Both the position numbers and the translations under genes were made by a program. Shown here one piece after another: positions 1 to 13,840 of a stretch of 25,494 nt of DNA. The notes below the pieces were generated by a model, which was given only the letters and a program-made list of their open reading frames with translations, made no database searches and was not told the DNA's origin. The number at the start of each line of letters is the position of its first letter. The stretch's first letter is position 1. This DNA comes from a virus. Lineage: Duplodnaviria > Caudoviricetes. The stretch lies in IMG/VR virus record IMGVR_UViG_3300022307_000012, positions 1-25,494 of that record; one strand, written 5' to 3'.

Positions 1-1
1 G

Positions 2-94
2 AGGCAGGATATTCTCGGACGTCCATTCCATACTAATAACATACATGGATTGCTGTGTCGGGGAAAGAGAAGGTACAGGGGTTTAGAAATATAA
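2..94 (+). CDS. 3' end of a hypothetical (cassette-type) gene, truncated by the window edge
   Basis: Frame 2 is open from the window start (RQDILGRPF...GLEI*). Its TAA stop at 92-94 lies inside the ATATAAC box of att-like site 1. Confidence 0.55.
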   Translation, partial: RQDILGRPFHTNNIHGLLCRGKRRYRGLEI

Positions 95-148
95 CGGCAG
101 GCATAACCGGGGAGCGTTAGCGACTCCGAGTTAATGCCATTGTTAGTG
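89..148 (-). repeat. attC-like site 1 (60 bp)
   Basis: ATATAAC-6nt-CATAAC...GTTAATG-5nt-GTTAGTG. The inner stem has extra bases on the 3' arm. Confidence 0.75.
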
Positions 149-170
149 TGATCTTTTATGGAGAATAGAA

Positions 171-470
171 ATGGGTGAAGAGGCAGATTATTTAGAAAGC
201 CAGTCTGATGGCGGTGCTGCTGATGCTATGCGCGAGTATGATCAGCAGGAATATTACAAAGGTCTGAGCAAAAAAGAAGCCAGATATCACGACAATAAAC
301 GCTCTGGTGTTGGCACAACGATTCGTTGCGCTAACTGTGGAAAACGAATTTTGAAGAAGTCGCACCAGACTCAATTTTGCAGAAACAAAGGAAAAGGGAA
401 CTGCAAGGACACTTACTGGAATAATGTGAGCGATACCCGGCGCGAAAGATCGCACAGGTTTTCACACTAA
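171..470 (+). CDS. cassette gene; hypothetical protein with Cys-rich putative Zn-binding motif
   Basis: GGAG RBS, CxxC...C...C pattern, stop in CACTAAC. Confidence 0.75.
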   Translation: MGEEADYLESQSDGGAADAMREYDQQEYYKGLSKKEARYHDNKRSGVGTTIRCANCGKRILKKSHQTQFCRNKGKGNCKDTYWNNVSDTRRERSHRFSH

Positions 471-548
471 CGCTGTATTAACTGGGCCGCTGATAGCCTT
501 AAATAAAAATACGGGGTCTACCGGCTCCAGTTGGATTACTTGTTAGTT
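465..548 (-). repeat. attC-like site 2 (84 bp)
   Basis: CACTAAC-5nt-ATTAACTGGGCCG...CGGCTCCAGTTGGAT-5nt-GTTAGTT. Unpaired G533 and T526 when the + strand folds. Confidence 0.8.
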
Positions 549-560
549 GAGGTGTTAACG

Positions 561-758
561 ATGGAATGGAAACAAAAAGGTTTTGCAGTCGTATCTGTGG
601 CAAGAGCCGGACAAAAGGCAATGCCGATGGTTCATTCTTTTTCCTCTGCTGAATGGGAGGCGCAGAGCGATAAGCGCAAGGCCGAACAATTGCCCGAGAA
701 TTTGCGTGAAGGGCTAGAAATTGTGCCTGCGACATTAACATTTGATATGAGCAACTAA
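561..758 (+). CDS. cassette gene; hypothetical protein (65 aa)
   Basis: GAGGT RBS at 549-553, ATG 561, stop in AACTAAC. Confidence 0.7.
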   Translation: MEWKQKGFAVVSVARAGQKAMPMVHSFSSAEWEAQSDKRKAEQLPENLREGLEIVPATLTFDMSN

Positions 759-808
759 CAAGGAGCTAAGTTGCCGCGATCAGCGGTCTACTTAGCGGGC
801 TGTTATGG
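753..808 (-). repeat. attC-like site 3 (56 bp)
   Basis: AACTAAC-5nt-GCTAAGT...CCGC gatca GCGG...ACTTAGC-5nt-GTTATGG. Unpaired T787; no bulge in the L box. Confidence 0.65.
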
Positions 809-828
809 TAAGTATATCAATAATAGCT

Positions 829-1211
829 ACACAACAAACAAGAGGAGTAGAGATGTGGCATACAAAGAAATGACAGAATACTGGAAAGAGCATGGTATCG
901 AGCCGGTTCAGCAGGTAGTTGTGGCGGCGGCATGCTTTTTGTCACATTGCCAACCTATCCTTGTTGGCGCAAGGCATTGGGATAGCGTGATGCGTGGACA
1001 GTTTGCGGGGATAGAGGGGCGTAGCGCCATTCCTAGTGGGGCATGGAAACAGGGTTTTATTGACCAATTTGGGACATTTCTTACTCGTGAAGAGGCTATG
1101 CAGATAGCGAAAGCGGCGGGGCAAAAGATCGATATTAATCGTGGCTGCGGCGGAAACGATAAAAAGCTTTACAGCGAAGGGCTTTATTAGTCACACAACA
1201 AACAAGAGGAG
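829..1211 (+). repeat. 19-bp direct repeat ACACAACAAACAAGAGGAG (829-847 and 1193-1211) containing an RBS
   Basis: Exact match read from the sequence. The two copies flank one gene. Confidence 0.85.
855..1190 (+). CDS. conserved phage hypothetical protein
   Basis: GAGGAG RBS then GTG 855 (or ATG 870). The G-x-R-H, QGFIDQFG-x-FLTREEA and LYSEGLY motifs recall a recurrent phage hypothetical family. Confidence 0.75.
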   Translation: MAYKEMTEYWKEHGIEPVQQVVVAAACFLSHCQPILVGARHWDSVMRGQFAGIEGRSAIPSGAWKQGFIDQFGTFLTREEAMQIAKAAGQKIDINRGCGGNDKKLYSEGLY

Positions 1212-1218
1212 CGGAGAG

Positions 1219-1401
1219 ATGTACGTGTATATTTTTGAGGACGGGCAAATAAAAACAGCATCAACTTTTGATGATGACGATATGGCAAGCTGTGATATGG
1301 GCGTTATTGATGTAATAGATATTAGTGGAGAGAAGCCGAAACAATACCATAATAATAACTGGCACGACCTAGAGAGCGCGGACGATGCCCGCACAACATA
1401 A
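1219..1401 (+). CDS. hypothetical acidic protein (60 aa)
   Basis: GAGGAG RBS and ATG 1219 within the 1141..1401 ORF. Confidence 0.7.
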   Translation: MYVYIFEDGQIKTASTFDDDDMASCDMGVIDVIDISGEKPKQYHNNNWHDLESADDARTT

Positions 1402-1412
1402 GGAGAGAAGAG

Positions 1413-1637
1413 ATGGCTGGTATCGAATTTATACTTATTATTACAATAATCTTTATTACTGCTTACGCAATAATGAGGTTTTATAGGAATGCTAGCTCTA
1501 TTGGAAAAAAGATGGGCGTTGTGACGCTTCATAAGCCAACACTTGACGATATGAGAGTGTTTAGGGAGTTGGGGTACAGACTAAGCCACGACGAAAGCTA
1601 TGGAATACTAGGGATGCATGGGGCTAAAAATCGATGA
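1413..1637 (+). CDS. hypothetical protein with N-terminal TM helix
   Basis: AGGAG RBS, hydrophobic N-terminus, ATGA overlap with the next gene. Confidence 0.7.
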   Translation: MAGIEFILIITIIFITAYAIMRFYRNASSIGKKMGVVTLHKPTLDDMRVFRELGYRLSHDESYGILGMHGAKNR

Positions 1638-2011
1638 AAAAGTGGGTGATAAACGATCCCCAAATACGCTCTAATGCCGCCAATGCTGTTATGGCTATAC
1701 GTGGGGAGGATAACTTAGAAGTCATCATTCAGGAGCATAAGGAGAGCAAGAGCGGGGAGCAAAGGGGTTTCTGGCACGTTTTAATCAAGATTATCAGCGA
1801 TGATACAGGATATCGCCCTGATGAGGTCAAAGAGATGCTTAAAAAGCGGATACTCGGCACTAGAGAGATTAAAATCGGCGGGTTTCAAACAGAGGTAACG
1901 GTAAGCTCAGAGTCGAGGGATAAAGTCGGATATTCTGAATTGATCGAGCATACCTACCAATTAGCGGCAGAGGCTGGGATTGTGCTTCCGTCATCCAGAT
2001 ATAACGGATAG
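1634..2011 (+). CDS. ninB: NinB/Orf-family recombination protein
   Basis: NinB-like pattern (R-x-NA...KS-x-EQ..WH..I..IS...KE..K...ELIE...AAE-x-GI) immediately upstream of ninG. Confidence 0.7.
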   Translation: MKKWVINDPQIRSNAANAVMAIRGEDNLEVIIQEHKESKSGEQRGFWHVLIKIISDDTGYRPDEVKEMLKKRILGTREIKIGGFQTEVTVSSESRDKVGYSELIEHTYQLAAEAGIVLPSSRYNG

Positions 2012-2072
2012 GATAGATAGAGATGTTAAAGCGCGATGGGGTTGATTCTAGCGGGTGGTATTGCTAAAAATA

Positions 2073-2648
2073 ATGAAAAAACCAATTAAGCAGAAAACCT
2101 GTAAAATCTGCAAGGAGAAATTCACCCCTTTTCAGCCGTTGCAATCTGTCTGCACCAATAATGGCTATGCATGCGCCAGAGAGTTCGCCAACAGACAAAG
2201 AGAAAAGCAGATCAAGAAAGAGAAAAAGGAGTTTAACGCCGAAACAAGGCGGATGAAGGAAAAGATCAAGACCAGAAAGCAATGGGCTGAGGAGGCTCAG
2301 GCCGCGTTTAATAAGTTTATTCGGCTAAGGGATGCGAGAGATCCGTGTATTAGCTGCGGAACCACCGACCAGAATATCCAATATTGCGCAGGCCATTATA
2401 AAACGAGAGGGGCATACCCTGAGCTACGCTATGAGGAATTGAACGTACACAAACAATGCAATAAGAACTGCAACCTTCACTTATCTGGCAACATAATCAA
2501 CTACAGGCCGCGTCTAATCGAAAAGATAGGGATTGATAAGGTTGAATGGCTGGAGGGTCATCACGAGCCTAAAAAGTACACCATAGACGACCTAAAGCGA
2601 CTAAAGGCGACTTATAACAAGAAAGCAAAAGAAATAGTAAATAAATAA
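2073..2648 (+). CDS. ninG: NinG/Rap-family endonuclease
   Basis: CxxC N-terminus, AQAAFNKFIRLRD..PCISCG, AGHY..RGA.PELRY.E.N.HKQC..CN.HLSGN...Y...LIEKIG...VEWLEG. Alternative GTG start at 2055. Confidence 0.92.
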   Translation: MKKPIKQKTCKICKEKFTPFQPLQSVCTNNGYACAREFANRQREKQIKKEKKEFNAETRRMKEKIKTRKQWAEEAQAAFNKFIRLRDARDPCISCGTTDQNIQYCAGHYKTRGAYPELRYEELNVHKQCNKNCNLHLSGNIINYRPRLIEKIGIDKVEWLEGHHEPKKYTIDDLKRLKATYNKKAKEIVNK

Positions 2649-2652
2649 TAAA

Positions 2653-2696
2653 TATGCGTGAATAGCATTGACAGTTACGCATAAAAAGCCTAAGCT
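2653..2696 (+). promoter_or_regulatory. sigma70 promoter with flanking inverted repeat (candidate operator)
   Basis: TTGACA 2668-2673, 17 bp spacer, TAAGCT 2691-2696. TATGCGT (2653-2659) and ACGCATA (2677-2683) bracket the -35. Confidence 0.7.
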
Positions 2697-2731
2697 AAGG
2701 CATCTTAAATAAAATCAGATGGAGAGAGAAG

Positions 2732-2989
2732 ATGGTTAAGTATAGGACGGAGGATAATTTTTATGGAGAGTTAATCGAGCCTGTAGAGGTTGAGCGCGAA
2801 ACCGCTTCAAGCGTTTGGATTAATGGTAGGAGAAACGCAAAAATAACAGACTGGCGTTGCTACCATGATACATGGGGCGAAGCTAAAGCGTATCTCCTTA
2901 AATTGGCAGAGTCCAAGTTAAATTCTGCGCGAAGATCTTTAGAGTTGGCGCAAGGCACTTACGGAAACGTAAAAGGCTTGAAGCAATGA
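2732..2989 (+). CDS. phage hypothetical protein
   Basis: GGAG RBS; VERETASSVWINGRR motif seen in small phage early proteins. Confidence 0.75.
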   Translation: MVKYRTEDNFYGELIEPVEVERETASSVWINGRRNAKITDWRCYHDTWGEAKAYLLKLAESKLNSARRSLELAQGTYGNVKGLKQ

Positions 2990-3144
2990 AAAGTCAAAAG
3001 CCATCAGCGGTAGCCAACCGAGCAAAGCGCAACAAGATGCGCGAAGAGGGGCGAGTAAAGGTGAGTTACTTCATTATGCCAGACCAAAAAGAGCGGGCGA
3101 ATAATTATATGCTAACCCGTCTAAAAGCAGTTAAAGGTAGCTAA
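2986..3144 (+). CDS. small basic protein, possible ribbon-helix-helix DNA binder (52 aa)
   Basis: Read by hand: MKSQKPSAVANRAKRNKMREEGRVKVSYFIMPDQKERANNYMLTRLKAVKGS. ATGA-coupled to the previous gene. Confidence 0.6.
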   Translation: MKSQKPSAVANRAKRNKMREEGRVKVSYFIMPDQKERANNYMLTRLKAVKGS

Positions 3145-3180
3145 TAACATGGGCAGATGATAGTCCATAAGGAGATTATA

Positions 3181-3573
3181 ATGGGTGAATTATTTAACAA
3201 TTTAACAATAGCATTAACACCGTCATCCGAAGATATGGCGATGATTAAGGCAACAGAGGATTTTTTCATGGAGGCGTTCGCAACACCAAGCATTGAAGAT
3301 TTTAATATAACTATTATCTCAACTACTGAGGCAAGGATTTACTATACCCTCGGAGATGAAGAGGTTGAAAGTATCGTTGATATTAACGCCAACTATTCGC
3401 CTAGAGAGCCTATGACATGGGAATACCCCGGATCACCGCCTGAGGCATGTATAGAAGAGGTGTTTGGGCTATCGGTATCTGAGAGGCATGAGTGGGATAA
3501 ATGGATGGGGGAGAATGATATAGAGCCAGATTTGCTGTACGCATTTGAAGGAAAAGACGATGACAGATTCTAA
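3181..3573 (+). CDS. acidic hypothetical protein
   Basis: AAGGAG RBS then ATG 3181. Confidence 0.75.
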   Translation: MGELFNNLTIALTPSSEDMAMIKATEDFFMEAFATPSIEDFNITIISTTEARIYYTLGDEEVESIVDINANYSPREPMTWEYPGSPPEACIEEVFGLSVSERHEWDKWMGENDIEPDLLYAFEGKDDDRF

Positions 3574-3679
3574 TGAAGAGATAACAGAAGAAGATCAAGA
3601 CGCTATTGATTACGCATGGGGTGAAGCCTGTTCTCAGCCCGATCTGGTAGATAACTATGAAGATAGAAGAGGTGAGTAA
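3560..3679 (+). CDS. small acidic hypothetical protein (39 aa)
   Basis: MTDSNEEITEEDQDAIDYAWGEACSQPDLVDNYEDRRGE; TAATG coupling to the next gene. Confidence 0.45.
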   Translation: MTDSNEEITEEDQDAIDYAWGEACSQPDLVDNYEDRRGE

Positions 3680-4416
3680 TGGACATTGAAGAGCTTAGAG
3701 AGCCACTTAGAATCGAGCAAATTGATTTTAGAGTGCAGTCTATCAATAAAGGCGGATATGCAACCATACTGGCATACAAGGACGCTAGGGTGGATATGAA
3801 TCGCCTGAACGCTGTGTTCCCGCTCAAATGGCAGCGAAAGCAGGAATCTATCAATGGGCGACTGTTTTGCTCGGTTGGTATTTACAATGACGATATTAAG
3901 GAGTGGGTGTGGGTTCAGGATGTTGGCACAGAATCAAATGCCGAGAAAGAGAAGGGGCAGTCCAGCGACGCATTTAAGCGAGCATGCTTTAACCTTGGGA
4001 TAGGTATTGAGCTTTACGATTACCCCCAGATTAGCGTGAAGCTGCGCCAAGACGAATGGGAGATGCGAAAAGGGAATGATGGAAAAGAGCGCCCTTCTGC
4101 AACATGGAACCTAAAGCTAAAAGAGTGGATGTGGTATTCCGATTTCGAAGAAGGAAAGATCTCGCGCCTTGTAGCTGTTGATTCAACAGGATCAACTAGA
4201 TTTGAGTGGGGAAGAAAGCTGCCAATCACGCCAAAAGTTAATATTAACCCAAAAGCGAAAAAGGAATTCGTGGTACAGGTAAAGCAATGCCTAGCTGATG
4301 CTGATGTAGAAGGTCTTAATGAGCTATTGTCTGAGTGGGATGCAGACGAAAAGGCCGTGCTTTGGAAGGAGTTTAATTCTCAACAACGTGCAGCAATTAA
4401 AGATTTAACAAAATAA
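3679..4416 (+). CDS. Rad52/22-family (Sak-like) single-strand annealing protein
   Basis: LAYKDAR..MNRL..V..W...CSVGI...W.W.QDVG.ES..EKEKG..SDAFKRA....GIG.ELY; followed by an SSB-like gene. Confidence 0.85.
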   Translation: MDIEELREPLRIEQIDFRVQSINKGGYATILAYKDARVDMNRLNAVFPLKWQRKQESINGRLFCSVGIYNDDIKEWVWVQDVGTESNAEKEKGQSSDAFKRACFNLGIGIELYDYPQISVKLRQDEWEMRKGNDGKERPSATWNLKLKEWMWYSDFEEGKISRLVAVDSTGSTRFEWGRKLPITPKVNINPKAKKEFVVQVKQCLADADVEGLNELLSEWDADEKAVLWKEFNSQQRAAIKDLTK

Positions 4417-4442
4417 TACCAACCAATAGAGGAAATAGAAAG

Positions 4443-4775
4443 ATGGCAAAACAACGACTAGCAATTAAAGTTGGCGAATACCAAGATAAAAACGACCCGA
4501 CGAAGATGAAGGGCGAATATGTGAAGCTCGGCGTAATGCTCGACGGGCAGAATGGGGCATATATCCTGATAGATCCATCGGTAAGCCTTGCCGGATGCTT
4601 GCAAAAACAGAACATGATGAACCATCGTGCCGGAAAAGAGGTTCGGGATACTCTTATGGTGTCAGTATTCGATGATCAGCAGCAAACCCAACAGCCCAAT
4701 GACTACGCCCCACAAGGATCGCCGAATAATTACGGCGGATCTCCATCGAATGGATCTGACGATACGCCGTTCTAG
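4443..4775 (+). CDS. phage single-stranded DNA-binding-like protein
   Basis: Compact N-terminal domain, Q/G/P-rich linker, acidic DDTPF C-terminal tip, position after the SSAP gene. Confidence 0.7.
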   Translation: MAKQRLAIKVGEYQDKNDPTKMKGEYVKLGVMLDGQNGAYILIDPSVSLAGCLQKQNMMNHRAGKEVRDTLMVSVFDDQQQTQQPNDYAPQGSPNNYGGSPSNGSDDTPF

Positions 4776-4783
4776 TCTGGAAT

Positions 4784-4813
4784 AAAAAAAGCCCCTCTGA
4801 TGAATGAGGGGCT
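4784..4813 (-). terminator. Rho-independent terminator (minus strand, possibly bidirectional)
   Basis: GCCCCTC/GAGGGGC stem with an A7 run on its left, giving U7 on the minus-strand transcript. Confidence 0.8.
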
Positions 4814-4837
4814 AAGGAGATGAATGGAGATTCATTG
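4784..4837 (-). ncRNA. candidate ~55-nt sRNA with CUCC/CUCCUU motifs
   Basis: Minus-strand TTGTAT-17-TATTAT promoter directly upstream, terminator at its end, no substantial ORF. Confidence 0.45.
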
Positions 4838-4843
4838 TTAGCG

Positions 4844-4892
4844 ATAATACCCCATAATGGATATTGATACAAATAATCTGTTGGTATATTTT
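4844..4892. promoter_or_regulatory. overlapping divergent sigma70 promoters
   Basis: Minus: TTGTAT (4872-4867), 17 bp, TATTAT (4849-4844). Plus: TTGATA (4864-4869), 17 bp, TATTTT (4887-4892), or extended -10 TGgTATATT. Confidence 0.5.
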
Positions 4893-4897
4893 TTATT

Positions 4898-4963
4898 GCA
4901 TAACGCTTGCGATAACGCGACTGAGCCGCAAGGCGAAGGTCGCTGTTAATTGCGTTGTTAGTT
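4898..4963 (-). repeat. attC-like site 4 (66 bp)
   Basis: GCATAAC...GCGATAACGCGAC...GCCgcaaGGC...GTCGCTGTTAATTGC...GTTAGTT. Unpaired T4944 and A4948. Confidence 0.8.
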
Positions 4964-4987
4964 TTCGACTTAAACGGAGATGAGAGC

Positions 4988-5161
4988 ATGAGAATAGATA
5001 AAACTGAACACGGTGTAACTTTGTGGGACGACAACAATAAATGGATATTAGACGCCTCAACAGTTGCTGATGATGGTGAGATAACGATTGATACAAAGGC
5101 TTTTGATATTAAGTACAACACCAAGAAACAGAGGATGGTGCTGAAACTCAAAGAAAACTAA
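4988..5161 (+). CDS. cassette gene; hypothetical protein (57 aa)
   Basis: GGAG RBS, ATG 4988, stop in AACTAAC. Confidence 0.7.
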   Translation: MRIDKTEHGVTLWDDNNKWILDASTVADDGEITIDTKAFDIKYNTKKQRMVLKLKEN

Positions 5162-5242
5162 CGCCATACTAAAGCGGCCGCACGATGCCACAACCACGGA
5201 GCCGAGAACTATCACGGCTCGATTTTAAGTTAATTGTTATAT
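5156..5242 (-). repeat. attC-like site 5 (87 bp)
   Basis: AACTAAC-5nt-ACTAAAGCGGCCG...CGGCTCGATTTTAAGT-5nt-GTTATAT. Unpaired A5227, A5222 and T5219. Confidence 0.75.
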
Positions 5243-5256
5243 TCAAGGTAAGCCGT

Positions 5257-5478
5257 ATGCAAAGGGTATCTAAAAAGAAAAGGAAGAAGCAGCGTAAAGC
5301 GGTTGGCTATGAGGAGCAGCCTGCAACGTGCCGATCTTGTGTTAACTATGAAGGCGGCCTTGTAGTGGATGGCTGTAGATACCAAATGAGGTGCGTGCTA
5401 CACGAGTTTGGGGTTAACCCAAGTGCTGTTTGTAATGATTGGGAAGATCGAAGTGGCGCTGTGCTTGAGAGAATATAA
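5257..5478 (+). CDS. cassette gene; small basic Cys-rich (CxxC...C..H...C) protein
   Basis: AAGGT RBS, ATG 5257, stop in ATATAAC. Confidence 0.7.
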   Translation: MQRVSKKKRKKQRKAVGYEEQPATCRSCVNYEGGLVVDGCRYQMRCVLHEFGVNPSAVCNDWEDRSGAVLERI

Positions 5479-5597
5479 CGGCTTGGCTGAGAGGCAGCAA
5501 GCCACACTTAACTTAAACAAAACCGATGGAGACTATGAGCATGAAAAATTTTAAACAAACATCGCGGCTTGCTGTCCTTTCTAGCCTGTTGTTAGGT
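5473..5597 (-). repeat. attC-like site 6 (125 bp), overlapping the start of the lipoprotein gene
   Basis: 19-bp stem GGCTGAGAGGCAGCAAGCC / GGCTTGCTGTCCTTTCTAGCC with unpaired T5575 and T5582; ATATAAC and GTTAGGT boxes. Confidence 0.8.
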
Positions 5598-5780
5598 GCC
5601 TTTGCACTGAGCGGGTGCTCAACTGGAGACAGACCGATGACAGACGCTGAAGATATTAAAACGCGATGCCTTGATGGGGTTACTTATTACCTCTATCGGG
5701 AAACGGCAGGATATTCGGGTTACGGATACATGAGTGTTAAATTTAACCGCGACGGATCAGTGAATACTTGTGGCACCTAA
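5541..5780 (+). CDS. cassette gene; putative lipoprotein
   Basis: GGAG at 5528-5531. MKNFKQTSR n-region, hydrophobic h-region and LSGC lipobox. Stop in ACCTAAC. Alternative starts at 5526 and 5535. Confidence 0.75.
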   Translation: MKNFKQTSRLAVLSSLLLGAFALSGCSTGDRPMTDAEDIKTRCLDGVTYYLYRETAGYSGYGYMSVKFNRDGSVNTCGT

Positions 5781-5839
5781 CGACCATGCTCACCGGGGCG
5801 AAGCGAAGCGTAGCATCCGTGTGGTGCTAATTGTTATAT
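5775..5839 (-). repeat. attC-like site 7 (65 bp)
   Basis: ACCTAAC-6nt-GCTCACCGGGGC...GCGAAGC...GCATCCGTGTGGTGC-5nt-GTTATAT. Extra bases on the 3' arm. Confidence 0.75.
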
Positions 5840-5859
5840 TTTTATTGAGGAATTTAGAG

Positions 5860-6102
5860 ATGCTTAGAACAAGCGAAGAACCAAGAAAGGCTGCAGCAGA
5901 GGCTCAAAACTATTGCGAAGTGAGCCTTGGTTATCATGTCGGGGCGATGCTGGTTATTAAGTTGCGAGACAACTGGAAAGAGAGGGTTTACAGAATAGGA
6001 TCTCAACAGGGATGTAACAGTTACCGTGTTGGCGATGTTAATAATGGAAAAGGGTTTAATTTTTATCCTTCCATTCACCCGCATGAGTTCGTTGAAATAT
6101 AA
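5860..6102 (+). CDS. cassette gene; hypothetical protein (80 aa)
   Basis: GAGG RBS, ATG 5860, stop in ATATAAC. Confidence 0.7.
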   Translation: MLRTSEEPRKAAAEAQNYCEVSLGYHVGAMLVIKLRDNWKERVYRIGSQQGCNSYRVGDVNNGKGFNFYPSIHPHEFVEI

Positions 6103-6115
6103 CAGTGTGTTATAC
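6097..6115 (-). other. minimal palindromic recombination core (attI-like simple site)
   Basis: ATATAAC-AGTGT-GTTATAC closes array 2. Confidence 0.55.
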
Positions 6116-6140
6116 GTCTTATGCAAGGTGTAGGATTAAA

Positions 6141-6153
6141 AATCAATGACTTA
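6141..6153 (+). promoter_or_regulatory. IHF consensus site
   Basis: AATCAATGACTTA matches WATCAANNNNTTR exactly. Confidence 0.45.
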
Positions 6154-6242
6154 CAAAGATAATAGGAAGGCTAGAGAGCTATGGTCAAAACAGGCTGTAG
6201 TGAAGAAAGTCGCTCTTACCCAAGATTTAGGAGAATGGAATA

Positions 6243-6572
6243 ATGAGCATTAACGAAGAACAGATAGATAAAGGCAAAAAGCTAACAAGTAGAGTGCCAT
6301 ACCGGGAAGCCTTCCAGCGTGGAGCTAGTTCTAGGGATGATGAGATTGAATTGTTACAGCTAGAGAACAAAGCGCTAAAGAATCGGGTTGAGAGGCTTGA
6401 GAGGGCGATGGACATAGATATTGTTGAGTATGTTAGCAATGAGCTTGACTCTGTTGAAACTGACAATATAAGAGCTTGCTCATTTCTTGCAGGCGCAGTT
6501 AAACAGGCGCGAGCTATTAAGAGTAAGCTCCTATCCCAACACAATACAGATAAGGAGAATGGACATGGGTGA
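6243..6572 (+). CDS. hypothetical coiled-coil protein
   Basis: AGGAG RBS; heptad-like central segment. Confidence 0.7.
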   Translation: MSINEEQIDKGKKLTSRVPYREAFQRGASSRDDEIELLQLENKALKNRVERLERAMDIDIVEYVSNELDSVETDNIRACSFLAGAVKQARAIKSKLLSQHNTDKENGHG

Positions 6573-6756
6573 TTGGATTAGTGTTGGGGATAGGTTGCCC
6601 GATAATGAGGTTCTATTAACGAACGGAATAACTCATCTGATTGGGTACGTTAATGATGAGCTGATGGGCGAAAGTGAATACGAGGTACTTCCAGGAGTAA
6701 CCCACTGGATGCCTCTACCAGAACCACCCAACACAGACAGCAAAGGAGAGAAGTGA
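6565..6756 (+). CDS. DUF551-domain protein
   Basis: WISVGDRLPD...VTHWMPLPEPP signature; AAGGAG RBS. Confidence 0.85.
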   Translation: MGDWISVGDRLPDNEVLLTNGITHLIGYVNDELMGESEYEVLPGVTHWMPLPEPPNTDSKGEK

Positions 6757-6965
6757 TAATGAGTAAAGGAAGTAACAGGCGACCATCACAAGTCCCTCAT
6801 ATTCATGAGGCTACTAATTGGGCTATGGCATTCGGTGAAAAATGGCAAGCGAAAGACATGGAAGGAAATGAGCTGGCAGTAGGAAAGACTTACGAAGAGG
6901 CGAGAGATAAGGCGCTAGCTACTACACCGGATGATCTTACATTTTCCATCATAAGAGTAAGATGA
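6753..6965 (+). CDS. phage hypothetical protein
   Basis: AGGAG RBS, GTGA coupling, MSKGSNRRP N-terminal motif. Confidence 0.7.
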   Translation: MIMSKGSNRRPSQVPHIHEATNWAMAFGEKWQAKDMEGNELAVGKTYEEARDKALATTPDDLTFSIIRVR

Positions 6966-6976
6966 TATAATTAACT

Positions 6977-7159
6977 ATGGAAAGTGAACATACAGATCGT
7001 GATTCCGAATTAGTTAGCGATGTTTCGGCGATGCTTGAGGGAAAACCAATAGGAGAATCCCTTAATGCGATGATCGCCATTATTATTGGAATTATTGAGG
7101 CAAGCCCAAAGAAAGAGGGTGCGATTATACGCACTGCTGTTATTAAGGCGCTACGGTAG
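6977..7159 (+). CDS. hypothetical protein (60 aa)
   Basis: Fills the gap between adjacent + strand genes. Confidence 0.55.
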   Translation: MESEHTDRDSELVSDVSAMLEGKPIGESLNAMIAIIIGIIEASPKKEGAIIRTAVIKALR

Positions 7160-7166
7160 AATTGTT

Positions 7167-7529
7167 ATGGCTAGAGGACGACCTACAGACTATACTCAAG
7201 ATATTGCCAATAAGGCATGGGAATATGTTGATAATTACGAGAATCATGGTCATGCGATCCCTAGCGTAGTTGGTCTATGTAAAGTATTAAAGCGTGGAAA
7301 ATCAACCATTTACGATTGGGCTCAAGACGAAGAAAAAGAATTCTCGGATATATTAGCCGCTATTAATGAAAATCAAGAGCTTGTAACATTCAATAAGTCT
7401 CTTACTGGGGACTATAATCCAACTATAGCAAAGCTCCTACTAGGCAAGCATGGATATCATGATAAGCAGGATGTTAATGCTTCGGTAAGGGAAGTGTCTC
7501 ACGAAGAATGGCTTGACTCGCTTGAGTGA
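7167..7529 (+). CDS. terminase small subunit (P22 gp3-like DNA-packaging protein)
   Basis: MARGRPTDY, PS..GLC..L...KSTIYDW (HTH-like), G.YNPTIAKLLL..HGY.DKQ; directly upstream of TerL. Confidence 0.85.
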   Translation: MARGRPTDYTQDIANKAWEYVDNYENHGHAIPSVVGLCKVLKRGKSTIYDWAQDEEKEFSDILAAINENQELVTFNKSLTGDYNPTIAKLLLGKHGYHDKQDVNASVREVSHEEWLDSLE

Positions 7530-9054
7530 AGAAAACAAATCAAAACACCAAAGGCTAAAGGATGATTTTTTATTCTACGCCAGAAACTGCCTAAAGATCC
7601 GAACAAAGAGCGAAGGAACTAAACCATTTATTCTCAACAAGGCTCAAGAATACATCCATGACCGCCTTGAGAGGCAAAGAGAAGAAACCGGCAAGGTTCG
7701 AGCGATAATACTCAAGGGGAGGCAACAGGGAGCGTCAACATACATTGGCGGTCGCTTTATGTGGCGCGTTACCCATTCAAAAGGCGTTAGGGCGTTTATC
7801 CTCACACACGAAGATGATGCAACTCAAAACCTATTTGATATGTCTAAGCGGTATTATGAGCATCTTCCTGAGTTCGTAGCACCTGAAAGAAGCTCAAGCA
7901 ATGCAAAAGAGCTTATATTTAATAGGTTAGATTCAGGGTATAAGGTAGGAACAGCAGGAAATAAGTCAGTAGGAAGATCGCAGACTAATCAATTATTTCA
8001 CGGGTCAGAGGTAGCCTTTTGGCCTAACGCAGCAGAACATGCAAAAGGGATCTTGCAGACTGTTCCTGATGCTCCAGATACAGAAGTTATCTATGAATCA
8101 ACAGCTAATGGGGTTGGGAACTTTTACCACATACAGTGGAAGCAAGCAGAGGCCGGGCTAAGTGACTTTATAGCAATATTTGTCCCTTGGTTTTGGCAAG
8201 AGGAGTACGCTAAGAGTGTTCCTGCTGGATTTTTCCCTGATGATGAGGAGACGGATCTTATATCTCAGTATGGGCTTACTGTAGAGCAGATATATTGGAG
8301 AAGGTTAAAAATAGTTGAGCTATCATCTGACGGAACCGACGGAACCGTATCGTTTATGCAAGAGTACCCAATGAATGCAGCAGAGGCATTCCAAACTACC
8401 GGCGCTGATGGGCTAATAAAGGCTGCTCCTATTGTAAAAGCAAGGAATACTAAAGTTAATGGGTCTGGGGCGCTAATAGTTGGGGTAGACCCCTCAAGAG
8501 GAGGGGATAGGTTTTCTACCATCAAAAGGCACGGGAGAAAGGCTTACGGCCTAAAGAGTTGGAAGGGCGATGCTGTAGACTCGCTCGGAAAGGCTGTATC
8601 AAAATGCAAGGAGATACTCGACGAGGTAGATGAAGAGGCTGGGAAAGTCCCAGATATGATGTTCATTGATGCCGGGGGCGGCGCTGATATTGTTGATCGC
8701 CTGCATGAGCTTGGATACTCTGATAGGGTGAAGGCTATATATTTCGGTGCCTCGCCATTAAACAGCAAGAAGTATATTAATAAGCGCGGCGAGATGTGGG
8801 GGACATACAACTTATGGCTTAACGATGAGAATATGGAGGTTGAGCTTCCAGATAGTGATAGCCTTCAAGCTGATTCGTGCGCATCTCCATATAGTCGAGA
8901 TAGTCATGATAGAATAGTACTATGGAAGAAAGAGCGGATAAAAAAAGAGTATGGCTTTTCTCCAGATGAAGGCGATGCTATAGCCCTTACTTTTGCAGAG
9001 CCAGTTAATTTAGATAAAGCCGTCGAGCTTGAGTTTGATTCACTATGGAATTAG
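7513..9054 (+). CDS. terminase large subunit
   Basis: Walker A-like ILKGRQQGAST, FHGSEVAFW, YESTANG coupling motif, nuclease IVGVDPSRGGD and SPDEGDA. Start codon uncertain. Confidence 0.95.
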   Translation: MTRLSEENKSKHQRLKDDFLFYARNCLKIRTKSEGTKPFILNKAQEYIHDRLERQREETGKVRAIILKGRQQGASTYIGGRFMWRVTHSKGVRAFILTHEDDATQNLFDMSKRYYEHLPEFVAPERSSSNAKELIFNRLDSGYKVGTAGNKSVGRSQTNQLFHGSEVAFWPNAAEHAKGILQTVPDAPDTEVIYESTANGVGNFYHIQWKQAEAGLSDFIAIFVPWFWQEEYAKSVPAGFFPDDEETDLISQYGLTVEQIYWRRLKIVELSSDGTDGTVSFMQEYPMNAAEAFQTTGADGLIKAAPIVKARNTKVNGSGALIVGVDPSRGGDRFSTIKRHGRKAYGLKSWKGDAVDSLGKAVSKCKEILDEVDEEAGKVPDMMFIDAGGGADIVDRLHELGYSDRVKAIYFGASPLNSKKYINKRGEMWGTYNLWLNDENMEVELPDSDSLQADSCASPYSRDSHDRIVLWKKERIKKEYGFSPDEGDAIALTFAEPVNLDKAVELEFDSLWN

Positions 9055-9058
9055 TACA

Positions 9059-11173
9059 ATGCCAGATTATAACAGTCATGAAACAGTATTAAAGCTACTC
9101 TCTACAGACCAAGAGCCGGAAGTAGATAACCGCGCAAAAGTCCGTGAGGTTACACACTTCACAGAGAAGGAGGACGGACAATGGGAGCCTGACGTAGTCA
9201 GCAATATGTCTGGACGACCTAGATACACGTTCGATAAGTGTAATCCTGTCATCGACTCCATAGCCGGGGAAATTGAACAGGCTGATTTTGGCATCAAGGT
9301 TCGTCCAGCCGGAGGAGAGTCGACAAAAGACCTTGCCAAACTATATAGCGGAATAATTAGAAATATTCAATCAATGTCAGATGCCGTCAATACGGTATTT
9401 AATCCAGCAGCTCGTCAGATGACGACGGCCGGATTTGATGCGTGGCGTGTTACTCAGGAATGGGGTGATAGCGACTCATTCGATCAAGATCTGTTTATTC
9501 GCAAGATATCAAACCCTGCTGACAGAGTGTGGTTCGACTCAGGGGCAGAGCTTCAAAACATGAGCGACGCTAGGCATGCGTTCGTTCTTCATGCTGTAGT
9601 TAAAGATGAGTATATGGAAAGATGGCCTGATGGTAAATGTTCATCTGTTGGCGACGCTAGGGACGAGACAGTTTATTACTATAAGCCAGACTTCGTTATT
9701 ATCGGAGAAATCTTATATAAGAAAGAGACTACAAAAGAGCTTGTATTGATGAGCAATAACGCGGTCTATGAGGACGATGAGAAGTTCCAATCCGTCGTGG
9801 ATGACCTTCTTGCTAACGGCATTAAAGAGGTTAGACGCAGAAAGAGCAAATCACACATTGTATTTAGCCGTAAGTTTGATAACGATGGATGGCTTGAAAA
9901 TGAAGTAGAGACGGTATTCGATTACATTCCTGTCATCCCTGTTTATGCCAACTTTAAGGTGTCAGAGAATAAAGTGATTTACCGTGGAGCGATCAATACC
10001 ATGATGGACTCTCAGCGCGTATACAATTATGCTCAGAGCCGAGCCATTGAGGAGGGGGCCTTATCGCCTAGAGGCAAGTATTGGATGACTAGAGAGCAGG
10101 CTAAATTAGATAAAGCCACGCTTGATACGATGAACACCAACGCCAATCCAGTGCAAACATATACCCATGTAGAAGGACATCCTCCACCATTCTGGCAGGG
10201 AGGCGCACAGATTAACGCTGGATTACAGCAAACAGCCGCCGATATGTCGGGCAATATCATTGAATCGTCTGGGGTATTTGCTGCTAACCAAGGCAACGCG
10301 CCTCAACAGTCAGGTGTTGCTATAGAGTTGCAGCAGAACAAGGGTGACAACTCAACGATTAAGTATTTCAAATCACAAGAGATCGCCATTACTCATACAG
10401 CAAGGATTATTGTCAACGCAATCCCTAAAGCATACGATACAAAGCGCATTGTTAGGATTATTGGCGAAGATGGAAGCTCTAAAGAAGAGACTATCAACGA
10501 CGAGATCTACGACCAAGAGCAGGGTAAGATGGTCGCATTAAATGATATCAGGAAGGGCAAATATGACGTTACTTGCGATGTTGGCCCAGCCTTTAAATCA
10601 CGACAACAGGAAACAGCTAGGGCGTTCCTTGATGCGGCTACTATTGATCCGTCGTTACTAGAGTTTGGGAAGGACATCTGGCTAAGCAATCAAACGGCTC
10701 CCGGATTCGATGCTATGGCAGAGAGAGCCAGAAAGAAGCTTCTGGAGAATGGAGAAATACCAGACGATCAGATGACCGACGAAGAGAAGGAGCGGGCTCA
10801 AGCATTAATAGAGCAGGCTCAAGCAGAGCAGGAAGCAGCGGCAAACCAAGAGCCGTCCGTTATGGATCAGGCTATTGTAGAGCAAACGCAGGCTAATACA
10901 GCCGATGTTGTGAGTCGAGCCAATGAGCGCAATACAAAGGCCGCTCTATCTCAAGAGAAACAAGACTTTGAGGAACTGAAATACGCGCGAGAGCTAGACC
11001 TTAAAGAGCGTAAGATGATTATTGATATGCTTAATACACAAGCCCAAACCCTAAAAACAATCAAGGATAGTATGGGGGTTGATACGATTGTTGGTGAAGG
11101 GAATGTAGATACCTACGCAGAACAAGTCGATGCGGTTGGCGACACCCAAGAAATGATTCCAGATGAGGACTAA
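9059..11173 (+). CDS. portal protein (P22 gp1-like)
   Basis: About 700 aa after TerL; GQW, RPR.TFD, IPVIPVY, DSQRVYNY, SGVAI, GKYDV..DVGPAFKSRQQE; coiled-coil C-terminus. Confidence 0.93.
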   Translation: MPDYNSHETVLKLLSTDQEPEVDNRAKVREVTHFTEKEDGQWEPDVVSNMSGRPRYTFDKCNPVIDSIAGEIEQADFGIKVRPAGGESTKDLAKLYSGIIRNIQSMSDAVNTVFNPAARQMTTAGFDAWRVTQEWGDSDSFDQDLFIRKISNPADRVWFDSGAELQNMSDARHAFVLHAVVKDEYMERWPDGKCSSVGDARDETVYYYKPDFVIIGEILYKKETTKELVLMSNNAVYEDDEKFQSVVDDLLANGIKEVRRRKSKSHIVFSRKFDNDGWLENEVETVFDYIPVIPVYANFKVSENKVIYRGAINTMMDSQRVYNYAQSRAIEEGALSPRGKYWMTREQAKLDKATLDTMNTNANPVQTYTHVEGHPPPFWQGGAQINAGLQQTAADMSGNIIESSGVFAANQGNAPQQSGVAIELQQNKGDNSTIKYFKSQEIAITHTARIIVNAIPKAYDTKRIVRIIGEDGSSKEETINDEIYDQEQGKMVALNDIRKGKYDVTCDVGPAFKSRQQETARAFLDAATIDPSLLEFGKDIWLSNQTAPGFDAMAERARKKLLENGEIPDDQMTDEEKERAQALIEQAQAEQEAAANQEPSVMDQAIVEQTQANTADVVSRANERNTKAALSQEKQDFEELKYARELDLKERKMIIDMLNTQAQTLKTIKDSMGVDTIVGEGNVDTYAEQVDAVGDTQEMIPDED

Positions 11174-11340
11174 TCCTCCTCTAGTTTGTATTTAAGTCCA
11201 CGACACATGCTAATAAGCTGGTTCCTTAACCGCTTGTTATTGCACCGCCTGTTGTATGTGTCGTATGGAATCCCCCAATAATTACAGGCTTCTTTAACTA
11301 GCCATCCCCTAGAATGTATTGTTCTTGTGAATTCGTTCAT
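11170..11340 (-). CDS. small HTH/Cro-like protein (56 aa)
   Basis: Read by hand: MNEFTRTIHSRGWLVKEACNYWGIPYDTYNRRCNNKRLRNQLISMCRGLKYKLEED. Confidence 0.6.
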   Translation of the reverse strand: MNEFTRTIHSRGWLVKEACNYWGIPYDTYNRRCNNKRLRNQLISMCRGLKYKLEED

Positions 11341-11348
11341 TATTTAGT

Positions 11349-11516
11349 TTAAGGATTTATGTTGTATGACGCGAATTCCTTGTCGTCACCGCTTGATGAT
11401 ATAGATATGTCAACTCTTTTTATTTTACTAGACGACTTCATTATAGCAATCACCAATTCGTTCATTAGTTGTTTTACTTCTTTTTCGTCAAGAACTTTAG
11501 ATATGTCTATGTCCAT
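11349..11516 (-). CDS. hypothetical protein (55 aa)
   Basis: Read by hand: MDIDISKVLDEKEVKQLMNELVIAIMKSSSKIKRVDISISSSGDDKEFASYNINP; in tandem with 11170..11340. Confidence 0.55.
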   Translation of the reverse strand: MDIDISKVLDEKEVKQLMNELVIAIMKSSSKIKRVDISISSSGDDKEFASYNINP

Positions 11517-11728
11517 CAATATTTCTCAGTCACTTTAATTATACCCATAATCGCCACCCCAATGATTTAAGTCTTTGGTAAAGAAGAATAGCCTCATATC
11601 TCCGACAAAACCTCGTTATTAGCACGATAAAACCTCTATCTATCAACAGTCTACCACAAATTTTATAATATAACCTACACAGTACGCGACTTTATCGCGG
11701 ATTATTACTCGAAAGAGGCAGAAATATT

Positions 11729-12547
11729 ATGAGCGAGCTACAGACTGAGTCGGTTGATGATGGAATTACCCTTGATAATGATCATGTCGAGGATATTGAA
11801 AATCAACAGCAAGACGAAGGAACCGTTGAAAGCGGATCGGATTTAGCCACCGAAGCTGAGGAAAAACAGGATAAAGCACAAGATGGTGTGCAGAAGGCGA
11901 TTAATAAGCAGCATGCTAAATTCAAAGAGGAGGAGCGTAAACGCATCGCCTCAGAGGATGAGGCTAGAGAGCTTAGAGAAAAGCTAGAAGCTATTGAGGC
12001 AGAGAATGGTGATGTAACTATTCCGCCTATGCCGGATGCCTATGATGAAGATTTTGATCAGAAGGTAGCGGCAAGAGAAAACGCCATCAGGCAGCAAGCG
12101 GTACGTGATGCGCAACAAAGTGTTATAGCAGAACAGAAGGTTGCTGCCAAGAAAGACGAGGAAAGAGCAGAGCAAGATCGGATTAACTCGCTTGTAAGTG
12201 GGTATGAAAAGAGAACGGCTTTACTCGGACTTGATGCAAATGAAATATCGAAAGCTGGTGATGTTGTGGTTAGTTACGGTATAGCGGGAGAGTTGGCAGA
12301 ATTCATCCTTAATGATGACGATGGCCCACTTATCACAAAATACTTAGCAGGTAATCCACTTGAATTGGATGATTTGCGAAATATGCCGATCACACAAGCC
12401 ACTATTAAGATTAATTCAACCATCAGGGAATCCGCGTCAGCAATGAAACCGCAAGCATCGACAGCCCCAGATCCAGTGGAAACACTACAAGGTCGTGGAG
12501 CAAGCGAGAAGGTAGACCCCTTTATTGCCGGTGCTACATTTACATAA
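11729..12547 (+). CDS. scaffolding protein
   Basis: Acidic, coiled-coil 272 aa between portal and coat; GP.I.KYLA.NP and APDPV motifs. Confidence 0.85.
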   Translation: MSELQTESVDDGITLDNDHVEDIENQQQDEGTVESGSDLATEAEEKQDKAQDGVQKAINKQHAKFKEEERKRIASEDEARELREKLEAIEAENGDVTIPPMPDAYDEDFDQKVAARENAIRQQAVRDAQQSVIAEQKVAAKKDEERAEQDRINSLVSGYEKRTALLGLDANEISKAGDVVVSYGIAGELAEFILNDDDGPLITKYLAGNPLELDDLRNMPITQATIKINSTIRESASAMKPQASTAPDPVETLQGRGASEKVDPFIAGATFT

Positions 12548-12565
12548 TATTTTTGGAGTAGTAAA

Positions 12566-13840
12566 ATGGCTAATAATTTTGACTCAAACTTTACGCGACA
12601 GCTCGCTAAGGTTTTCGTAAAGAAATTCGAGACTAATCGAGTTCTTTCTAAAAACGTCAACACTCAATTGCTTAAAGGGCGATTCAGTGAGGATTCAGGG
12701 GAGAACGTTGATTTTAAACGCCCAACTGACTATATCTCGCAGCGAACAGCGGGCGGTGATATTTCAGGAACTACCGCAAGCTCTATCATCACAGGTAAAG
12801 CTACAGGTACAGTCCAGAACTATTTTACCGTAGAGGTAGATTATTCTGAGGCAGATGAAGCGCTTAAGATGGGTCAAATTGACCAGTTGCTGGCTCCTAT
12901 GGCGACACGTATTGTGACTGACTTGGAGCTAGATTTCGCATCATTCATGATGAAGAATACCGCACTCCTTAATGGCACATACGGAACTGCTGTAACTACA
13001 TGGGATCATGTGGCTGGTGCTGGTGCTGTAATGGAATCTAGCGGCGTACCGATGGATGATGATTGGATTTATGCTGTAAATCCTTACACTAAGACATCAC
13101 TAGCAAGCAATCAGCGTTCATTGGGAGCTGGTGGTTCAGCCGGTGAGTTGATTTCTAAAGCCCATCAACGAGCCATTCTGTCTGATAACTTTGCTGGTAT
13201 GAAGGTTATGAGTGCAACATCTCTGGCATCGTACACCTCAGCAACTACTGGTGACTTGGTGGGATCGCTGTCAGCGACCCCTACAGGCACGTATGTTGGC
13301 GCTAAGGATACAATGACGCAGAGCCTTGCCGTAACTGGTTTCGGAACTTTCACTGGAACTATTCCAGCCGGAACAAACATTCAGGTAACAGGCCGTAACC
13401 GCTTAAACCTTTCGACTCGTAACCCCATCATTAATGCGGCTGGAGCTAACATCCTATGGACTGCTACAGTGACGGCTGACGCATCGCTGACTACTGGTGC
13501 GGGTACGTTGGTTGTTACTGGTCCGGGAATCTTCGAGGCTGCTGGTCAATACAATACTGTTGACTCTGCTTTAACCTCTGGTGATGTTGTGACCATTCTT
13601 GGTGCAGATACTACCCTGTATCAGCCTAACCTATTCTGGCATAAGCAAGCGTTCTCAATTGGATCAGTCCCTATCAAGAAGCTGAATTCGACTGACACCC
13701 TTGCTACCACAGAGGATGGGTTACAGATGCGCGTATCTAAAGGTGTGAGCTTCCGGGAGAACAAGCAGATTGTTCGCTTTGACTTCCGTCCTGCTTACGC
13801 GGTACTTAATCCATTCTTCGCCGGTCAAGGTTGGGGATAA
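12566..13840 (+). CDS. major capsid protein (P22 coat family)
   Basis: MANN start, 424 aa, PNLFWHKQAF and VRFD...Y.VLNP C-terminal motifs, followed by a terminator. Confidence 0.93.
   Translation: MANNFDSNFTRQLAKVFVKKFETNRVLSKNVNTQLLKGRFSEDSGENVDFKRPTDYISQRTAGGDISGTTASSIITGKATGTVQNYFTVEVDYSEADEALKMGQIDQLLAPMATRIVTDLELDFASFMMKNTALLNGTYGTAVTTWDHVAGAGAVMESSGVPMDDDWIYAVNPYTKTSLASNQRSLGAGGSAGELISKAHQRAILSDNFAGMKVMSATSLASYTSATTGDLVGSLSATPTGTYVGAKDTMTQSLAVTGFGTFTGTIPAGTNIQVTGRNRLNLSTRNPIINAAGANILWTATVTADASLTTGAGTLVVTGPGIFEAAGQYNTVDSALTSGDVVTILGADTTLYQPNLFWHKQAFSIGSVPIKKLNSTDTLATTEDGLQMRVSKGVSFRENKQIVRFDFRPAYAVLNPFFAGQGWG

Follow-up and report, generated by a model that had tools for sequence, protein, structure and literature searches.

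Probable phage cassettes with attC-type hairpins ahead of their genes: two inverted arrays in a Caudoviricetes genome

The virus record IMGVR_UViG_3300022307_000012 (Duplodnaviria; Caudoviricetes), 25,494 bases long and with a completeness estimated at 70%, was analysed as a whole and is called the window here. Its first 5,839 bases hold seven hairpins resembling attC, the recombination site of integron cassettes, in two groups 4.09 kb apart. Do these hairpins have the parts of attC sites, and which of their strands is the recombining one? An attC site is recognised by an AAC/GTT R box, a central spacer of 5-6 nucleotides (nt), an L box and a length of about 57-141 nt. R box, 5-6 nt spacer and L box are present in all seven sites, whose sequences are diverse and whose lengths range from 56 to 125 nt. 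A covariance model was built from 68 attC bottom strands of bacterial genomes, all in standard orientation, and run over the whole window with filters off. It found all seven sites, every one on the plus strand, with 23.1-39.0 bits and E-values from 1e-7 to 8e-4. The remaining 10 matches in the window reached at most 13.7 bits, which is also the score of the best minus-strand match. Such a strand-specific comparison had been proposed in a preliminary description of this DNA, which held the sites to be inverted relative to their genes, and its outcome was the one expected there.

The unpaired bases also bear on the strand. According to PMC5027507 (this and the other papers given by PMC number are cited from the parts of their text that were available), the recombining bottom strand has AAC in R', bulges on the opposite arm at positions 16, 20 and 23 or 24, and more G-T pairs. 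Positions were counted from the R'' end, following that paper. With the plus strand taken as bottom strand, six of the seven sites close the L box round a bulge at position 16, scoring 5.0-6.0 of 6 against 2.0-4.0 for the minus strand. The Vibrio integron MK672802 (L081) served as control for this scanner, and there the non-coding strand was called bottom, likewise by the covariance model. A conserved T bulge stands at 23 or 24 in six sites; in site 3 it stands at 22, one off as expected if base 16 has been lost. Site 3 (753..808) is symmetric in the L-box test (4.0 versus 4.0), yet the covariance model prefers its plus strand (23.1 versus 13.1 bits). The claim that unpaired bases of the 3' arm near the L box follow the bottom-strand pattern thus stands for six sites, and site 3 lacks the bulge at position 16. 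As for the bulge coordinates proposed before, most were right; the base in the last site is G5824 rather than T5825, A5222 and T5223 are ambiguous with each other, and the T bulges of position 24 at 125, 4940 and 5816 had been missed. The G-T pairs, also noticed before, number 12 on the plus and 3 on the minus strand, which is weaker evidence than the bulges because the plus strand is G-skewed by about 0.2. TAACAA is read on the minus strand of six sites, and the tips GCGAAGC and GCAA are present, both as described.

Sites and genes alternate on the plus strand. Array 1 extends to the contig start. Its site 1 (89..148, 34.3 bits) has bulges at A133 (position 16), A129 (20) and T125 (24), a predicted cut after base 94, and a fold probability of 0.30 on the plus versus 3e-4 on the minus strand. 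Behind it lies an open reading frame (ORF) of 99 amino acids (171..470; phrog_8162, unknown function), whose stop is the TAA of site 2 (465..548, 32.9 bits; G533 at 16 and T526 at 23, a spacing like that of attC aadA7; predicted cut after 470). The following ORF (561..758, 65 amino acids, no family) stops on the TAA of site 3, where T787 is the only bulge and the canonical fold has a probability of 1.5e-5 on each strand; this site is likely degenerate or strand-neutral. Array 2 starts with a hairpin, as had been reported, namely site 4 (4898..4963, 34.7 bits; A4948 at 16, T4944 at 20, T4940 at 24; GCAA tip). An ORF of 57 amino acids without family (4988..5161) then stops on the TAA of site 5 (5156..5242, 31.5 bits; A5227 at 16, T5219 at 24; fold probability 0.002), which may hold an upstream in-frame ATG at 5185. 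The next ORF (5257..5478) encodes a basic protein of 73 amino acids with Cys pairs, for which no homologue was found besides itself, and stops on the TAA of site 6 (5473..5597, 29.1 bits; T5582 at 16, T5575 at 23; fold probability 0.51). Note that the gene behind site 6 (5541..5780, 79 amino acids, phrog_7772) starts within the site: the loop holds its ribosome-binding site (RBS) and ATG, and the 3' arm encodes its signal peptide. Its product is a predicted lipoprotein, from a hydrophobic stretch followed by LSGC, which we take to be the lipobox. The stop of this gene is the TAA of site 7 (5775..5839, 39.0 bits; G5824 at 16, T5820 at 20, T5816 at 24; GCGAAGC tip; fold probability 0.025). The last ORF of array 2 (5860..6102, 80 amino acids, no family) has its stop followed by C, and on this stop lies a short inverted repeat of an R box, 5 nt and an R-like box (6096..6114). 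The array, said before to end without a hairpin, thus ends on TAA|C and a short repeat and not on nothing. The repeat may be a candidate attI simple site or a collapsed attC, for which only its position argues, because the motif occurs twice in the window versus 0.33 times expected.

Six of the seven sites begin on the TAA stop of an upstream plus-strand frame, and the site at 4898 has no gene ending there. By the rule of PMC4889954, two or more attC sites within 4 kb on one strand with no integrase nearby make a cluster of attC sites lacking integron-integrases (CALIN), and the three plus four sites, all on the plus strand, are such clusters. Within the record, 70% complete, neither array is a complete integron, since no intI adjoins it there. 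Nor is the layout that of classical cassettes, with the ORF on the top strand and upstream of its attC, as all ORFs lie here on the bottom-type strand. Those cassette genes that have any family match hit phage families. Distant homologues of the first cassette protein (171-470) were seen in 158 records of cultured phages, chiefly those of Vibrio, Erwinia and Enterobacter.

Where do such cassettes break? Junctions were taken from other inverted arrays, because no relative of the window was found and no joints were seen in its sequencing run. From blastn hits among these arrays 16 site pairs were picked, from 5 independent genomes or genome pairs. In 5 pairs the hairpin and the downstream leader or gene are common while the upstream DNA differs; in 3 only the hairpin is common, starting at AA|C; in another 5 the upstream DNA is common and the hairpin changes 1-4 nt after AA|; the last 3 are uninformative. 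Hence the unit boundary falls at AA|C in 13 of the 16 pairs, all from other phages, and 8 of these 13 come from the two near-identical phages L439 and L440, several being two sides of one event. These two phages (L439, 2400-5500; L440, 5200-9700) have identical IntI and differ by several whole cassettes. A hairpin kept with the upstream gene was seen in none of the 16 pairs, and the junctions share only 2-4 nt. For example in phage PH101 (KR534323, L116:25900-28000), which has four sites, one hairpin with its leader and one upstream segment are duplicated, and both duplications break at the TAAC box. What is more, the lipoprotein gene begins, with RBS, ATG and first codons, within site 6 of the window and would be split by a cut at the far G|TT of this site. 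The junctions support that the hairpin goes with the downstream gene in other phages and that breaks occur at AA|C. Together with the overlap at site 6, they support the earlier proposal of a crossover at TAA|C and a unit of hairpin, RBS, gene and TAA, for which breakpoint mapping had been suggested.

Is the inversion peculiar to this phage or a general trait? One bottom-strand pattern was searched orientation-blind on both strands of viral and bacterial collections, and strands were called by a fold filter and then by our own codon-score gene caller; the figures are samples among the matches listed. Among the viral ones, 43 of 58 sites were inverted, 9 standard and 6 unresolved, with sites in 30 of 123 loci. 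Among the bacterial ones, 3 of 146 sites were inverted, 114 standard and 29 unresolved, in 69 loci from 138 matched stretches. By locus the inverted:standard ratio is 20:5 in viruses versus 1:57 in bacteria (Fisher p 1e-13, with some loci on one contig). When the 80 viral loci that have flanks were recounted with the model, 63 of 73 sites were inverted and 5 standard; in a further set of bacterial loci, some of them also in the first set, 2 of 67 sites were inverted and 50 standard. In 20 longer phage regions, which were chosen for having sites, 81 of 91 sites are inverted, and all 7 standard ones are in one record. The upstream stop in these regions is the TAA of TAAC in 54 of 78 cases, and the downstream start lies inside the hairpin at 11 of 76 sites. 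In two phages (L391, L401) both genome strands bear arrays, and each array is inverted relative to the genes round it, so the polarity follows the direction of transcription and not the genome strand. For one locus (L200:1122) the grammar scanner says standard and the covariance model inverted, and Vibrio phage H188 had no model match. The sole bacterial locus with an inverted majority has its inverted site on a Tenacibaculum chromosome (L264:4998). The counts support that the inversion is a phage trait. Could bacterial cassettes simply have entered phages the wrong way, by top-strand recombination, or could rare antisense cassettes have been captured as a block? Top-strand recombination does occur at low frequency (PMC5027507), and 3 of the 146 bacterial sites among the matches listed were called inverted. 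But in a wrong-way entry gene and site are turned as one, and their orientation to each other stays the same. Moreover every site of the window is inverted to its own gene, as are the 81 of 91 in the chosen phage regions, and the family matches of the cassette genes are to phage families. We regard such an origin as highly improbable.

If the sites are bottom strands for an integron integrase, are there phages that encode one? A search with an IntI alignment gave 80 viral loci, of which 78 were new and were analysed. Matches to attC were found in 36 of the 78, and 27 of these loci were inverted, 4 standard and 5 tied; by site, 70 of 99 were inverted and 16 standard. The genes of the inverted loci run toward an intI of the same direction. 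Each of the 22 integrases tested lies above the TIGR02249 cut-off (327-479 bits versus 265). In 12 of 26 loci the last gene ahead of intI has its stop on TAA|C, 25-337 bases from intI, where attI should be, and of 11 genes tested directly behind intI, 7 encode a terminase, a portal protein or a phage integrase. Genes for DNA methyltransferases, an HNH nuclease and radical SAM proteins are seen within the inverted arrays of IntI-bearing phages or shortly before them (L434, L435, L449, L463, L433, L437, L446). With a single Vibrio IntI as query, the integron-like arrays found were all of the standard Vibrio type, the inverted loci being reached only through the alignment. In the tree of phage IntI proteins there are 8 label changes in a mixture-model quick tree, 2 of them forced by strong branches, and 5 under LG+G4; the test for a single clade gave p-AU 0.055. 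In another set, 26 records behind array loci, no protein reaches the IntI cut-off, and six near-complete genomes with inverted arrays have no PF00589 match.

Published experiments give a further view of the same strand. In PMC9892861 recombination with IntI1 took place at G|TT in five of the six phage attC sites, more with the bottom than with the top strand. When mapped back, PH101 attC1 and attC2, which recombined, are on the strand of the flanking genes, that is inverted, while the TJE1 sites are in standard orientation. P12002L attC1 is inverted to its genes, and attC2 lies between convergent genes. In the available text of PMC9892861 the PH101 array is described as typical for bacteria, with no remark on the polarity of the ORFs. 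Phage cassettes with inverted ORFs were not found described in the literature covered, to which subscription papers mostly do not belong, nor was this polarity in the available parts of PMC9024848, PMC8876359, PMC5371416 and PMC8352920.

The genes around the two arrays are those of a phage. Every called gene in 1-7600 of the window is on the plus strand by our codon-score caller. The order is small ORFs, NinB-, NinG- and Erf-like genes, then terminases, then P22-like portal and coat genes; family matches place the recombination genes between the arrays (1634..4775, plus strand) and the small and large terminase with the portal and coat genes downstream (7167..13840, plus strand). Array 2 is placed upstream of the terminases, comparable to the arrays of IntI-bearing phages. 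Past site 3 follows an ORF of 111 amino acids (855..1190, plus strand, phrog_839), where the cassette end is undefined because the stop is TAG and has no hairpin behind it. A leader repeat of 85% identity, with an 18-base identical core that holds an AAC, is seen at 821-853 and 1185-1217, preceding the ORFs at 855 and 1219; the two copies may mark junctions that have no hairpin, or the leader may have been duplicated. A strong hairpin of terminator type lies shortly before array 2, at 4790-4813. Its T run is on the minus strand, and it would stop antisense transcription from the array. Over the window, the Rfam 15 covariance models gave no match at E up to 1, a promoter scan gave 9 promoter-like matches versus 15.2 expected by chance, and a terminator scan was at chance level. 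Might the units then be shuffled without IntI, by an Xer-like recombinase, a prophage integrase, or homologous recombination through Erf and Nin proteins? The Erf-, NinB- and NinG-like genes between the arrays would suit this, and a tyrosine integrase of 385-409 amino acids is found in 4 of 21 inverted-array records. The sites, on the other side, fit the IntI bulge code, and true IntI genes adjoin 27 inverted arrays. The 2-4 nt common at junctions are too little for homologous recombination, and the six near-complete genomes show inverted arrays with no PF00589 protein at all. A different recombinase, or homologous recombination, is therefore very unlikely.

There is a further question of concern, whether the sites of this phage still work. 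Several points weigh against taking them as live cassette boundaries. No integron integrase was found in the 25.5-kb record, where tblastn with phage IntI proteins gave a best E of 0.07. Site 3 has no bulge at 16. G at position 16 occurs in 2 of 6 sites here versus 52 of 68 bacterial sites and 48 of 63 in IntI phages; in the longer phage regions, whose records all lack IntI, it occurs in 41 of 82. The fold probability ranges from 1.5e-5 to 0.51 and is below 0.01 in three of the seven sites, and in sites 4, 5 and 7 the free minimum-energy fold differs from the full attC fold, with weak unconstrained z-scores. The reference attC sites had been picked by a bottom-strand pattern, which biases their fold statistics upward, and the gene caller behind the strand calls was checked on the window and one PH101 stretch only. 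Some phages have arrays of standard polarity (L407, that is G020; L084, that is TJE1; and L453), and P12002L attC1 gave no recombinants in PMC9892861. The window has no DNA match among cultured phages and so no junction for its own sites; a metagenome scan for relatives returned only its own sequence (L428). When viral sequences were searched with three cassette proteins, 2, 19 and 1 distant loci came up, and the covariance model found no credible site in the 15 of these 22 loci that were scanned. Among 80 loci of Erf relatives, an inverted array was found in L001 only. Finally, no joints were seen at the sites in the sole sequencing run with this DNA, a DNA run and probably its source; no RNA run was listed as containing it.

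Two side observations come from that run. Its contigs break at 752-754, at the first base of site 3, with a depth of 4.7 upstream and 7.3 downstream; this is most simply a single-base variant and was not used as evidence. A contig of 1751 bases and similar depth holds a hairpin less than 90% alike to site 3 (756-806), followed by an RBS and ATG, which is another inverted site in the same sample and possibly a missing part of this phage.

One explanation of these points is that the hairpins are domesticated relics. They would descend from inverted cassettes but no longer recombine here, persisting as leaders, stabilisers or processing sites of the mRNA or through the overlap of stop and start. 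The integrase-less record, the lost bulge of site 3, the three poorly folding sites and the rarity of G16 are what decay would leave. Site 6 is protein-coding, G-T pairs on the coding strand would also suit RNA, and neither the four genes past array 2 nor those past 1190 have hairpins. Decay does not explain so well that all seven sites keep AAC/GTT and six keep the DNA-specific bulge register, nor the fold probabilities of 0.30 and 0.51 in sites 1 and 6, nor a median for the seven sites of 0.025, close to the 0.065 of phages with IntI. In PH101, too, there is no tyrosine recombinase, yet its sites recombine with IntI1 (PMC9892861). On this evidence we consider relics unlikely.

The best explanation is that the seven attC-like hairpins probably bound phage cassettes of the form hairpin-leader-gene-TAA, with a predicted cut at TAA|C by an IntI absent from the record. 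IntI would fold and cut the coding strand of the sites, each unit running from a hairpin through leader and gene to the TAA. In complete elements the entry point of new cassettes would be an attI directly before intI, where the array ends downstream, and the cassettes would be transcribed not by a promoter inside intI but by the phage early operon, reading toward attI and intI. Because that operon would transcribe them in this direction, the ORFs would have to sit on the strand opposite to that of bacterial cassettes. This phage may have lost intI, may never have had one, or may carry it in the missing 30%, and its arrays could be served in trans, now or formerly, by the IntI of a host or a co-infecting phage. 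For the sites of this record, some of which look decayed, activity is inferred. The attC chemistry is classical and only the ORF polarity is new. The preliminary description had spoken of a distinct phage-adapted cassette type; the phage-specific inversion agrees with this in the counts of viruses versus bacteria, while each site is an ordinary attC relative to the recombining strand and only the ORF is flipped. A wider scenario, put forward tentatively as one that may about as well fail as hold, is that phages run an integron economy of their own, in which phage IntIs move a back-to-front cassette pool and serve integrase-less phages in trans, the polarity sealing this pool from bacterial cassettes. 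If it is true, phage and bacterial cassettes would each be silent in the other's array though the enzyme chemistry is common.

What would such cassettes mean for phages? They would provide site-specific swapping of small accessory genes, and with it a homology-free account of part of phage mosaicism. With the polarity barrier that they predict between the pools of phages and bacteria, the idea of phage attC sites as a route for cassettes into bacteria needs qualification. They also constrain cassette genesis, because the hairpin would be joined to the 5' side of the gene and can bring along RBS and start codon. Software that pairs each attC with the upstream ORF would in practice mis-pair phage cassettes.

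How do these arrays compare with known systems? With integron attC sites and cassettes (attC aadA7, VCR, attC oxa2; PMC5027507) they share the R box, the 5-6 nt spacer, the L box and the bulges at 16, 20 and 23-24 opposite AAC, and also the bottom-strand excess of G-T pairs, the AA|C cut, the small promoterless ORFs and the stop that often lies in a TAAC box. They differ in that the bottom strand is here the coding strand, with the stop in R' instead of R'', and in that the hairpin leads its gene and can supply its RBS and start codon. The phage CALINs of PMC9892861 (TJE1, PH101, P12002L, ctTUS972) are likewise integrase-less attC clusters in phage genomes, while phage-encoded IntI beside inverted arrays is not described in the available text of that paper. 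PH101 and ctTUS972 were found to have the same inversion, and TJE1 is standard. In the inverted integron-integrase group of Treponema the cassette genes are in normal orientation. As in the phage elements, intI and cassette genes are co-directional in that group, but there it is intI that is flipped relative to attC (PMC4889954). The phage elements keep the classical relation of intI to attC; in them it is the ORFs that are turned round, with intI behind the genes. Sedentary chromosomal integrons of the Vibrio type, such as MK672802, have the same site grammar with homogeneous sites and an array that reads away from intI, in contrast to the diverse sites of 56-125 nt seen here. PMC5027507 treats the bottom-strand rule as what makes cassette genes face away from intI; many phages follow this rule, beside true IntI genes too, with their ORFs on the opposite strand.

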